Source of the DNA: a phage
Direction: 5' to 3' (one strand)
Sequence record: PZ445526.1
DNA length: 64,000 bases
The notes under the pieces: generated by a model
The model's input: only the letters and a program-made list of their open reading frames with translations
The model's database searches: none
What the model was told of the DNA's origin: nothing
Translations under genes and position numbers: made by a program
In this document: one piece after another, positions 27,375 through 39,785 of the stretch
Numbering within the stretch: the stretch's first letter is position 1
Layout: each line of letters starts with the position of its first letter

Positions 27375-27556
27375 AATGAATTTATATAATCAATGAGTTC
27401 TTGTTCTTTATTATCAAATTCTTTAGAAAGTTCTTCGTATTCATTTGCGCTAAAAGGACCGCATTCATTACAAACTTTTTCCAATTCACTATTTTTATCC
27501 ATAACTTCGTGGATAAGAGAAAAGAGTTTGTCTTTTTGTTCTTTGCTTAGGCTCAT
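27371..27556 (-). CDS. hypothetical protein
   Basis: 61 aa ORF. Confidence 0.4.
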   Translation of the reverse strand: MSLSKEQKDKLFSLIHEVMDKNSELEKVCNECGPFSANEYEELSKEFDNKEQELIDYINSL

Positions 27557-27726
27557 ATATTAATTTCCAGAAGTTTTAAAATAATTCGTTTTTGCTTAAA
27601 TATTTCCATAGTTAAATGATCAGTATCTTTTTGACCAATTCCAATGGCAAAACCTTTATTAGCAGCGAGTTCAATTAAATTATCAAGTTCGCGTAACACT
27701 TCGTACTGTAACTCAGAACTATTCAT
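27553..27726 (-). CDS. hypothetical protein (57 aa)
   Basis: Hand-translated MNSSELQYEVLRELDNLIELAANKGFAIGIGQKDTDHL...; ATGA overlaps on both sides; below track cutoff. Confidence 0.35.
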   Translation of the reverse strand: MNSSELQYEVLRELDNLIELAANKGFAIGIGQKDTDHLTMEIFKQKRIILKLLEINI

Positions 27727-27935
27727 TTCGGTTTACCTTCTTTAACGAAATCTGGATAAGGATAAAATCCCGAATAAAATCCTTCACCTTTATGATTGAT
27801 GCATCCTTTATTAGAACAATAGCACCAATAATCAAAATCACAAGCCATTTCATCGTTGCATAAAGCAAAAACAACCGGCCATTTACACTTTTCACAATGA
27901 GCATTTTTAAGAATACTAGTTTGGCTCATAACCAT
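27723..27935 (-). CDS. small cysteine-rich (zinc-binding?) protein
   Basis: 70 aa with HCEKCKW...CNDEMACDFDYWCYCSNKGCINH. Confidence 0.45.
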   Translation of the reverse strand: MVMSQTSILKNAHCEKCKWPVVFALCNDEMACDFDYWCYCSNKGCINHKGEGFYSGFYPYPDFVKEGKPK

Positions 27936-28138
27936 GTCACCTTTAAGCAGTATTCTTCTACATGCTGTTTACGACCTTTCTTATCAATAAAGGTATATTC
28001 AACGAATGTTCCAATGTAGTCTTTATCGACATCATGTGGACTATTAATTGGACATTTAGTACGGCAAATGCGTTCCCATTGACGAATAATTACTGCCTTA
28101 TTCTTTGGGTCATATGGATGTGGATAATGTATATTCAT
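27926..28138 (-). CDS. hypothetical protein
   Basis: 70 aa from ATG (MNIHYPHPYDPKNK...); track start is TTG. Confidence 0.4.
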   Translation of the reverse strand: MNIHYPHPYDPKNKAVIIRQWERICRTKCPINSPHDVDKDYIGTFVEYTFIDKKGRKQHVEEYCLKVTWL

Positions 28139-28602
28139 AATAATGGTTCCCAATCAACAATCACAATTTCTAATTTAGAGGAATATGTATCTAAAATCCC
28201 CTCAATAATATCCCAGTTCCCTTTACCTATGCCTGCACCAATCCTAGGCATATAGATTGTAGGTTTAGTCAGTTTATTTTCACCAAACTCATTTAATTCT
28301 AACATACAATTCATTAAAGCGGAATACTCAAAATTTGGCCCTGGTTGAAATTGAGTATAAAGGTTGAAGCAATACGCTTTATGAGTCCTAAAGTATTTTT
28401 CATAGACTGAATAAGAACCAAGTTTAGTTACATCACCCCATTCAGTCTGTAATTTATCAGCTTCCAAAATTTTAGGGAAAGCTTTGGTTAATTGACCTGC
28501 GACTCCAGCTTTCATCGCGTGAAAACAATTACATCCATGCGCAATATTTTTACCTTCAGCGAAAAGGGCGACAATATCGCCCTTGATATATTTTACAATC
28601 AT
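28135..28602 (-). CDS. macro-domain-like protein (putative ADP-ribose binding/hydrolase)
   Basis: 155 aa; GDIVALF...AHGCNCFHAMKAGVAGQL and PRIGAGIGKGNW resemble macro-domain glycine-rich motifs; inference, no search run. Confidence 0.5.
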   Translation of the reverse strand: MIVKYIKGDIVALFAEGKNIAHGCNCFHAMKAGVAGQLTKAFPKILEADKLQTEWGDVTKLGSYSVYEKYFRTHKAYCFNLYTQFQPGPNFEYSALMNCMLELNEFGENKLTKPTIYMPRIGAGIGKGNWDIIEGILDTYSSKLEIVIVDWEPLL

Positions 28603-28946
28603 CTAGTACTCAATCCTCGATTATAAGAATCTACCAAACGGTCAACCATTGAATGACAAGCGGCTTTATCTTTCTCCTCCGCAACTGAACATTCTAAAGT
28701 ATTCCACTTTTTAGCATATCGTTTTAACAATGTATAGTTTTTGTATCTGCTTGATTTATCCCTTTCTCCGTCTTTATATGCATATATTAATTTCTGTGCA
28801 AATTCAGCTTGGCATGCTTTATTTTTCCCACAATAATCTGCCGCAGTGCGGTTTACATATTCTCTAATTTCAGTATATGATGTATCTGCTGACGCAGAAG
28901 CAGAAAATGAAATTAATCCTATACATAAAACCAAAATTTTAGTCAT
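28599..28946 (-). CDS. small secreted protein (signal peptide); positionally equivalent to T4 vs
   Basis: 115 aa; MTKILVLCIGLISFSASASA signal peptide, four Cys. Confidence 0.45.
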   Translation of the reverse strand: MTKILVLCIGLISFSASASADTSYTEIREYVNRTAADYCGKNKACQAEFAQKLIYAYKDGERDKSSRYKNYTLLKRYAKKWNTLECSVAEEKDKAACHSMVDRLVDSYNRGLSTR

Positions 28947-38956: not shown

Positions 38957-39032
38957 TGGTCGAGGCAGTAGGGATCGAACCTACGACCCAGGACTTAGAA
39001 GGTCCTTGCTCTTCCTTCTGAGCTATGCCTCG
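38957..39032 (-). tRNA. tRNA-Arg (anticodon UCU)
   Basis: Hand-folded cloverleaf: acceptor CGAGGCA/UGCCUCG, anticodon loop CUUCUAA, T-loop GGUUCGAUCC, encoded CCA. Confidence 0.8.
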
Positions 39033-39036
39033 GATT

Positions 39037-39111
39037 TGGCGGACGTGATAGGATTCGAACCTATAACCAATCGCTTAACAGGCGATCGCTCTGCCATTGA
39101 GCTACACATCC
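39037..39111 (-). tRNA. tRNA-Asn (anticodon GUU)
   Basis: Acceptor GGAUGUG/CACGUCC, anticodon stem AUCGC/GCGAU with loop CUGUUAA, T-loop GGUUCGAAUCC, encoded CCA. Confidence 0.75.
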
Positions 39112-39115
39112 AAAT

Positions 39116-39202
39116 TGGTGGGGAGTGATGGAGTCGAACCACCCGAGTCGCAATGACAATGGATTTACAGTCCACACCGCTACCTCTACGGGATAACTCC
39201 CC
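39116..39202 (-). tRNA. tRNA-Tyr (anticodon GUA), long variable arm
   Basis: Acceptor GGGGAGU/ACUCCCC, anticodon loop CUGUAAA, long extra arm, T-loop GGUUCGACUCC, encoded CCA. Confidence 0.7.
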
Positions 39203-39212
39203 CAAATTAATT

Positions 39213-39287
39213 TGGTGGCCCTGGGTGGAATTGAACCACCATCTGGCGATTATGAGTCGCTTGCTTGAACCTTCCAGCTACAGGGCC
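39213..39287 (-). tRNA. tRNA with CAU anticodon (T4 tRNA-Ile counterpart, or Met)
   Basis: Acceptor GGCCCUG/CAGGGCC, anticodon loop CUCAUAA, T-loop GGUUCAAUUCC, encoded CCA; same position as T4 tRNA-Ile. Confidence 0.7.
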
Positions 39288-39288
39288 T

Positions 39289-39364
39289 TGGTGCTGATTG
39301 ACGGAATCGAACCGCCGACCTTCTCATTACAAGTGAGTTGCTCTACCTACTGAGCTAAATCAGC
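39289..39364 (-). tRNA. tRNA-Thr (anticodon UGU)
   Basis: Acceptor GCUGAUU/AAUCAGC, anticodon loop CUUGUAA, T-loop GGUUCGAUUCC, encoded CCA. Confidence 0.75.
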
Positions 39365-39369
39365 AAAAC

Positions 39370-39459
39370 TGGCGGAGGCGATAGGATTTGAACCTATGAG
39401 TCGCCGGAGCGACTGCCGGTTTTCAAGACCGGTGCATTAAACCACTCTGCCACGCCTCC
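39370..39459 (-). tRNA. tRNA-Ser (anticodon UGA), long variable arm
   Basis: Acceptor GGAGGCG/CGCCUCC, anticodon stem CCGGU/ACCGG with loop CUUGAAA, long extra arm, encoded CCA. Confidence 0.75.
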
Positions 39460-39461
39460 AG

Positions 39462-39535
39462 TCTCCGTGGCAGGATTTGAACCTACGACATTCTGCTCCC
39501 AAAGCAGACGCTCTACCAAACTGAGCTACACGGAG
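39462..39535 (-). tRNA. tRNA-Pro (anticodon UGG), CCA not encoded
   Basis: Acceptor CUCCGUG/CACGGAG, anticodon stem UCUGC/GCAGA with loop UUUGGGA; 3' end reads ...GAGACUGG. Confidence 0.75.
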
Positions 39536-39545
39536 TAAATTAAAT

Positions 39546-39619
<74 letters not shown>

Positions 39620-39624
39620 AAATT

Positions 39625-39711
39625 TGGTGCGAGAAGTGGGACTCGAACCCACAAGGAAATCATTCCGCAGCATTTTAAGTGCTGTGCCTTTACCAATTTG
39701 ACCATTCTCGC
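39625..39711 (-). tRNA. tRNA-Leu (anticodon UAA), long variable arm
   Basis: Acceptor GCGAGAA/UUCUCGC, anticodon stem CAGCA/UGCUG with loop CUUAAAA, long extra arm, encoded CCA. Confidence 0.75.
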
Positions 39712-39712
39712 G

Positions 39713-39785
39713 CTGGGAATAAAGGACTCGAACCTTTGCATCCTGGAATCAAAATCCAGTGCCTTACCAACTTGGCTAATTCCCA
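39713..39785 (-). tRNA. tRNA-Gln (anticodon UUG), CCA not encoded
   Basis: Acceptor UGGGAAU/AUUCCCA, anticodon stem CUGGA/UCCAG with loop UUUUGAU, T-loop GGUUCGAGUCC. Confidence 0.75.

Follow-up and report, generated by a model that had tools for sequence, protein, structure and literature searches.

The T-even phage gene tk.4 (adfM) encodes a free-standing macrodomain protein with a predicted glutamine-type active site and a putative role in reversing DarT2 modification

The window, a stretch of 64,000 nucleotides of phage DNA (record PZ445526.1), is a segment of a Tequatrovirus (T-even phage) genome. Between bases 27000 and 30000, the window shares 98.4% identity with T6 and about 98% with T2, RB14, and RB18, and several T4-like phages are about 96% identical over a 24-kb stretch of the window, none of them matching exactly. 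On the minus strand, the gene order regB-vs.1-vs-tk.4-tk.3-tk is kept (Table 1). In T4 (NC_000866), the order is tk, tk.1, tk.2, tk.3, tk.4, vs, vs.1, regB, and tk.4 is a 155-aa CDS with the annotation "contains A1pp phosphatase motif". The ORF between vs and tk.3 in the window is identical to T4 Tk.4 (NP_049723) at 151 of 155 residues (97%), with 155 of 155 residues covered, and has the same length, the same position, and the same stop/start overlaps as its T4 orthologue. The T2 and T4 Tk.4 proteins are identical to each other. The tk.3 product of the window is identical to T4 Tk.3 at 70 of 70 residues (100%), and the proteins encoded by the neighbours of tk.4 are 97-100% identical to their T4 counterparts, in unchanged order. 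Sequence and position identify the ORF as T-even tk.4, which has lately received the name adfM (anti-DarT factor, macrodomain).

Table 1. Positions of tk.4, its neighbours, and the sequence features discussed in the text
Feature	Position	Strand	Description
tk.4 / adfM CDS	28135..28602	-	155-aa single-domain macrodomain protein; starts MIVKYIKGDIVALFAEGKNIAHGCNCFHAMKAGVAGQL
tk.3	27926..28138	-	70 aa; Pfam DUF7202 1.6e-38; downstream neighbour of tk.4
vs (valyl-tRNA synthetase modifier)	28599..28946	-	upstream neighbour of tk.4; PHROG 1256; 99% identity to T4 Vs
57-aa ORF	27553-27726	-	between tk.2 and tk.3; without family match
70-aa ORF	27723-27935	-	between tk.2 and tk.3; Pfam Phage_zn_bind PF23895
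ATGA, vs/tk.4	28599-28602		vs stop overlaps tk.4 ATG
ATGA, tk.4/tk.3	28135-28138		tk.4 stop overlaps tk.3 ATG
predicted first ADP-ribose-binding loop	28495..28545	-	residues 20-36, IAHGCNCFHAMKAGVAG; holds H22, N25, G33, A35
codons 31-32	28507-28512	-	allelic positions in first binding loop
NLYTQ	28351..28365	-	residues 80-84; Gln84 at catalytic position
predicted second loop (diphosphate/distal ribose)	28213..28248	-	residues 119-130, PRIGAGIGKGNW
predicted mRNA structure at tk.4 start	28564-28640	-	stem, then 9-bp GC-rich hairpin
terminator-like site	28564-28584	+	same palindrome as the hairpin
best candidate promoter site	30009-29981		TTTACT-17-TATAAT with TG extension, before regB
tRNA cluster	38960-39785	-	ten genes (Rfam tRNA)

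The original prediction, made from the sequence without database searches, had singled out this ORF and the small ORF downstream of it. Both are present, the former with the motif stretches that had been quoted for it, including YMPRIGAGIGKGNWDIIEGIL. The accompanying remark that the tk-to-regB interval held no T4 equivalents of these genes was mistaken: the two ORFs are tk.4 and tk.3, and nothing about them is thus specific to the window phage. The ATGA overlaps at both ends of tk.4 suggest that vs, tk.4, and tk.3 form one translationally linked block. The two short ORFs between tk.2 and tk.3 are present in T2 and absent from the 10-kb T4 locus across the interval, pointing to an insertion/deletion polymorphism among T-even phages. 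Elsewhere in the window, nine genes of the tRNA cluster score 59-74 bits and one scores 30.2 bits, just above threshold; T4 is usually described with eight tRNA genes.

A search for a dedicated tk.4 promoter gave none: the σ70-like scan is at chance level (19 found, 17.9 expected), and there is no MotA-box match on the minus strand from tk.4 to about 38.8 kb, about 10 kb upstream. Across the whole window, the MotA-box-like middle-promoter pattern (TGCTTNA, 11-13 nt, TANNNT) occurs 22 times against 4.4 expected, an enrichment of about five-fold; 18 of the 22 matches are on the minus strand, and 0 of 100 shuffles reached 22. Since no promoter was found near tk.4, the gene is probably transcribed by read-through that starts further upstream, for instance at the best candidate site, before regB. 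At the tk.4 start, the GAGG Shine-Dalgarno sequence and the AUG are predicted to lie paired in a stem, which is followed by the GC-rich hairpin at codons 6-13 (z −2.45; an equally good fold in 4 of 200 shuffles). The predicted sequestration of both elements, taken with the ATGA overlap, weakly suggests that translation of tk.4 may be coupled to that of vs. The same palindrome has the form of a terminator on the opposite strand, and one related phage record has a terminator annotated beneath its tk.4 match.

Tk.4 is a free-standing macrodomain protein. A macro ("A1pp") domain was noted in tk.4 in 2006 in comparisons of T4-like genomes (PMC1524935), and the macro fold anticipated by the original prediction is borne out by sequence profiles, by structure prediction, and by a fold search. 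In particular, Tk.4 matches Pfam Macro PF01661 at 24.0 bits, narrowly above the cut-off of 22 bits, with E 3.9e-5 and coverage of positions 2-113 in the 118-position profile, and matches PHROG 335 at 1.3e-64. The single sequence searched against the PDB matches BT1257, Poa1p, TARG1, SCO6735, and DarG, and a profile built from 65 homologues matches the same proteins at 2.3e-21, 1.2e-15, 4.4e-17, 9.4e-18, and 7e-14, respectively. The AlphaFold2 model from the 65-homologue alignment has a mean pLDDT of 95.5 and a pTM of 0.90, and has a three-layer alpha/beta/alpha fold with two glycine-rich loops. A Foldseek search with the model returned macrodomains, with TARG1 (4J5R, E 7.9e-10) and Poa1p (6LFQ, E 1.6e-9) as top matches, and the best structural matches, BT1257, Poa1p, DarG, and TARG1, all belong to the ALC1-like class. 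Both stretches proposed beforehand as glycine-rich ADP-ribose-binding motifs align with the corresponding loops of TARG1, DarG, and SCO6735.

Conservation in the Tk.4 family is concentrated in the predicted active site. The loop motifs M30-x-x-G33-x-A35 and P119-x-I-G122-x-G124 are conserved. Specifically, in the alignment of 65 homologues, which extends down to 30% identity, G33, A35, G62, Q84, G88, P119, G122, and G124 are invariant, and G8, H22, G23, C24, N25, C26, M30, D49, L61, N80, Y82, T83, I121, G128, and W130 are at least 90% conserved. Among 141 newly found representatives, drawn from the best 150 profile-search matches listed, Q84 and N25 are each present in 141 of 141, and G33 and A35 in 140 of 141; Q84 is also present in 108 of 108 aligned homologues. 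Across 251 family members, Q84, N25, G33, A35, G122, and G124 show little or no variation. Position 126 is Ala or Gly only, never Asp.

HMM alignments place Gln84 at the position of TARG1 Lys84, DarG Lys80, the PhiKZ gp104 lysine, SCO6735 Gln85, and the BT1257 glutamine; Gly126 at the position of TARG1 Asp125 (in TARG1 GCGLDRLQW), which is Ala in the SCO6735/BT1257 subclass; and Asn25 at the position of the DarG asparagine, SCO6735 N27, and PhiKZ gp104 N23. Judged from these alignments, the active site of Tk.4 is of the glutamine type found in SCO6735 and BT1257, unlike the lysine type of DarG, TARG1, and PhiKZ AdfM. With Gln84 and Asn25 and without the lysine, catalysis would probably proceed through a positioned, activated water rather than through a lysine nucleophile.

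Among the characterised systems closest to Tk.4 are SCO6735 (Streptomyces coelicolor, PDB 5E3B) and BT1257 (Bacteroides, 2FG1/2AFC), which are standalone macrodomains of the ALC1-like class. They share with Tk.4 the glutamine at the catalytic position (NMIGQ85 in SCO6735, NLYTQ84 in Tk.4) and the lack of an Asp125 equivalent. On single-stranded DNA, SCO6735 frees thymidine from DarT-made ADP-ribose faster than DarG or TARG1 does; it rescues DarT toxicity, with Q85A and Q85E inactive; and its authors propose that an activated water positioned by the glutamine performs catalysis (PMC9411070). The resemblance is incomplete, however. The mobile loop of SCO6735 and BT1257 exceeds that of DarG and TARG1 by five residues (PMC9411070), whereas Tk.4 lacks this five-residue insertion after the glutamine, as do 232 of 251 family members, which have the short form; identity is about 24-29%; and the first-loop motif is HGCNC...MGxG in Tk.4 and HxCND...WGKG in SCO6735 and BT1257. 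Since Tk.4 has neither the DarG/TARG1 lysine nor the mobile loop, neither mechanism is transferable to it without reservation, and its glutamine-type site makes DarG no ready template for its mechanism. The predicted glutamine-type, short-loop anatomy of the Tk.4 active site is among the points that the present analysis adds.

Compared with DarG itself (Thermus aquaticus, 5M31/5M3E; M. tuberculosis, 5M3I), Tk.4 has Gln84 in place of the catalytic lysine K80 (FPTKKHWR) and lacks the C-terminal DarT-binding domain. The NCBIfam DarG equivalog model NF048014 gives Tk.4 23.7 bits, far below its cut-off of 250, with E 2.6e-5 and a match confined to positions 2-146 of the 338 in the model; the PADLOC DarG model matches at 9.6e-7. 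These matches are weak but specific; by its score, domain content, and catalytic residue, Tk.4 is clearly not a DarG. Human TARG1/OARD1 (4J5R) is of the same ALC1-like class and has a Lys84/Asp125 dyad where Tk.4 has Gln84/Gly126. PhiKZ gp104, from a chimallivirus, is also a standalone phage macrodomain that acts against DarTG2 and is also named AdfM; it strips single-stranded DNA of DarT2-made ADP-ribose in vitro, and its N23A substitution lowers activity (PMC13309987). Its N23 corresponds to Tk.4 N25, but it is DarG-like, with a catalytic lysine motif (FPTKDNWR) and an Mtb DarG match at 9.4e-25, and BLASTP of Tk.4 against it yields a 23-residue local match (E 0.019). On these sequence comparisons, PhiKZ gp104 and Tk.4 are non-orthologous, and two unrelated lineages share the name AdfM.

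The window allele differs from T4 Tk.4 by four substitutions: T29A, G31K, S32A, and I112T. At codons 31-32, in the first binding loop, the window reads HAMKAG (Lys31-Ala32) and T4 and T2 read HTMGSG (Gly31-Ser32). About 80% of the family carries Gly at position 31, and 11 of 251 members carry Lys; the Lys allele is common in nature, with a 122-member cluster that also has K31-A32. In DarG and SCO6735, this part of the loop reads Gly-Lys-Gly, and mutation to Glu of SCO6735 Lys34, which corresponds to Tk.4 position 32, together with Lys89, affected activity (PMC9411070). By this analogy, a basic residue in the first loop would be compatible with a DNA substrate. We considered whether the window gene is decaying and rejected this, the ORF being intact, the invariant residues kept, and the allele shared by the 122-member cluster. 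A separate observation concerns the deposited mutant T4 clone T4_7t1 (OL964745.1; locus L001, 2573-2948). Its record annotates two short macro-domain CDSs in the tk.4 region, and the tblastn match there, at 86.6% identity to the window protein, is in two pieces. This suggests that tk.4 is disrupted, and possibly recombinant, in that clone, which would fit dispensability on laboratory hosts.

Published genetics link T4 tk.4 to defence by DarTG2. T2 or T4 without adfN, and T4 without both adfA and adfN, are still resistant to DarTG2, from which the authors predicted a further anti-DarTG factor (PMC11825919). In a HIDEN-SEQ preprint of November 2025, tk.4 is reported as the single significant T4 transposon hit on E. 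coli expressing DarTG2, and a clean tk.4 knockout sensitised T4 to DarTG2; the gene was renamed adfM, structural similarity to Mtb DarG was noted, and removal of DNA ADP-ribose by T4 Tk.4 was deduced by the authors rather than measured (10.1101/2025.11.20.689424). These genetics come from one preprint and one set of conditions (T4 allele, M9 glucose, 30 °C) (10.1101/2025.11.20.689424). The T2 Tk.4 protein has been seen by proteomics in infected cells, and we found no biochemical study of any Tk.4 protein in the searchable literature. The original prediction had offered two roles for the protein. Reversal of a defence-related ADP-ribosylation fits the T4 orthologue, with its single HIDEN-SEQ hit on DarTG2 and its sensitised knockout; binding of an NAD-derived signal, or its degradation, found no support.

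Together, these data point to a mechanism. On a DarTG2 host, infection releases DarT2, which transfers ADP-ribose onto thymidines of single-stranded phage DNA and blocks replication. Tk.4 most likely holds the ADP-ribose between its two glycine-rich loops and would cleave the ADP-ribose-thymidine bond, with a water positioned and activated by Gln84 and Asn25 as the probable catalyst, so that replicable DNA is restored. We consider it probable, with good though not full confidence, that Tk.4 is such a hydrolase of DarT2-modified thymidines in phage single-stranded DNA.

A protein that binds the same ligand could also protect stoichiometrically, with Tk.4 mainly blocking DarT2, or its ADP-ribosylated DNA product, by binding rather than by catalysis. 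The catalytically dead variants SCO6735 Q85A, DarG K80A, and TARG1 K84A inhibit DarT in vitro, SCO6735 most strongly (PMC9411070), and the phage factors AdfA and AdfB have been described as direct DarT inhibitors. The 155-aa Tk.4, however, has no counterpart of the DarG C-terminal DarT-binding domain, and its ligand-binding and catalytic-position residues are invariant over hundreds of family clusters, which argues for selection on enzymatic chemistry. Binding as the main mode of action is thus unlikely, although the two modes are compatible and not exclusive.

Tk.4 could instead serve the phage's own chemistry. T-even phages encode three ADP-ribosyltransferases, and Tk.4 might reverse the ADP-ribosylation or RNAylation of host proteins by phage Alt, ModA, or ModB, or might counter a different defence based on ADP-ribosylation or NAD signals, for example CmdTAC or Thoeris. 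Alt and Mod modify arginine, and no ALC1-like-class macrodomain is known to cleave that linkage. SCO6735 does also strip ADP-ribose from auto-modified PARP1 E988Q protein (PMC9411070). Neither our analyses nor the literature search found a link of tk.4 to these systems, and among the HIDEN-SEQ systems (rexAB, rnlAB, CBASS, DarTG1, and DarTG2), tk.4 is reported only for DarTG2 in the available preprint text (10.1101/2025.11.20.689424). We regard this alternative as extremely unlikely, and hydrolysis of DarT2-modified DNA as the preferred reading.

The wider family bears on a further alternative, in which Tk.4 acts primarily on small NAD-derived metabolites (for example ADP-ribose-1''-phosphate or O-acetyl-ADP-ribose) in NAD/ADP-ribose recycling and DarTG2 protection is a side activity. 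An exhaustive profile search found 1,227 clusters at 50% identity at E≤1e-30, and 10,350 at E≤1e-10. In T4-like loci, the order regB-vs.1-(vs)-tk.4-(tk.3)-tk is kept (26-29 of 79 IMG/VR loci). In two unrelated phages, Acinetobacter phage Aci05 (locus L004, 904-4474) and Vibrio phage AG74 (locus L005, 3132-6162), a Tk.4 homologue is embedded among clustered Prs/Nampt NAD-salvage genes whose stop and start codons overlap; the homologues in such phage clusters have 33-35% identity. Of about 50 viral loci that are not T4-like, 7 have Nampt within 6 kb of the Tk.4 homologue, as do 4 of the 80 bacterial loci; the loci noted for such an association, besides those of Aci05 and AG74, are L048, L049, L051, L069, L076, L078, L079, L117, L138, L144, and L160. 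A literature search found no macrodomain linked to phage NAD-reconstitution pathways (NARP2). A role in NAD metabolism draws its support from the historical "A1pp phosphatase" annotation, from the similarity to yeast Poa1p (6LFQ), an ALC1-like-class protein that shares the H-x-C-N-C motif with Tk.4, and from this association with Nampt/Prs in other phages. Of the residues probed in Poa1p, pairwise alignment pairs H23 with the conserved H22, S30 with A29 (Thr in T4), and F152 with G126.

Against a primary role of this kind in T-even phages, their tk.4 has no adjoining NAD-salvage genes; Poa1p has a serine (LFTSSFGG) at the position of Gln84, which is invariant in the Tk.4 family; the glutamine-type relative SCO6735 is a very efficient DNA-ADP-ribose hydrolase (PMC9411070); and the sole phenotype reported for tk.4 in the available preprint text is against DarTG2 (10.1101/2025.11.20.689424). 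An NAD metabolite as the primary substrate is very unlikely, and a DNA substrate remains our preferred reading.

In bacteria, the 80 loci with Tk.4 relatives span many phyla and have heterogeneous housekeeping neighbours, and the clustered immediate neighbours are lineage-specific housekeeping genes only, for example argC-like, ABC-F, and IleRS genes. DarG adjoins the DarT toxin, whereas a tblastn search with the single query P. aeruginosa DarT2 (E ≤ 1e-3), which divergent DarTs could escape, found no DarT2 homologue near family members in 79 viral and 80 bacterial loci (within 5 kb in bacteria). Within the limited sensitivity of that single query, nothing supports a view of Tk.4 as an "orphan DarG antitoxin". 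Given the heterogeneous neighbours and the absence of DarT2 nearby, as far as that query reaches, the family has the look of a standalone macrodomain of wide distribution, not of an antitoxin that has become detached. A bolder reading, which is tentative and which we think rather doubtful, is that the family is a distinct, very large lineage (glutamine type, short loop, HGCNC...NLYTQ...PxIGxGxxGGxW) with an ancestral job in NAD/ADP-ribose turnover that was not antitoxin-like, as the recurrence of Prs-Nampt-macro modules among unrelated phages and in certain bacteria would suggest, and that T-even phages recruited it against DarT2 through a lysine-independent mechanism without the SCO6735 mobile loop.

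The idea behind the original prediction was essentially right, but the gene was already known: it is T4 tk.4/adfM, whose annotation is older and whose assignment is recent, and the window, which carries a 97% orthologue of it, adds nothing new in this respect. The residual value lies in the predicted glutamine-type, short-loop site, in the non-orthology of the two AdfM proteins, and in the recurrent Prs-Nampt-macro modules. If the family were indeed the distinct lineage considered above, it would represent a third mechanistic solution to thymidine de-ADP-ribosylation, and further substrates would be possible. For T-even phages, tk.4 is one layer of a multi-layer resistance to DarTG, in which AdfA and AdfN act against DarTG1 and Tk.4/AdfM acts against DarTG2, and it helps account for the plating of T2 and T4 on DarTG2 hosts.
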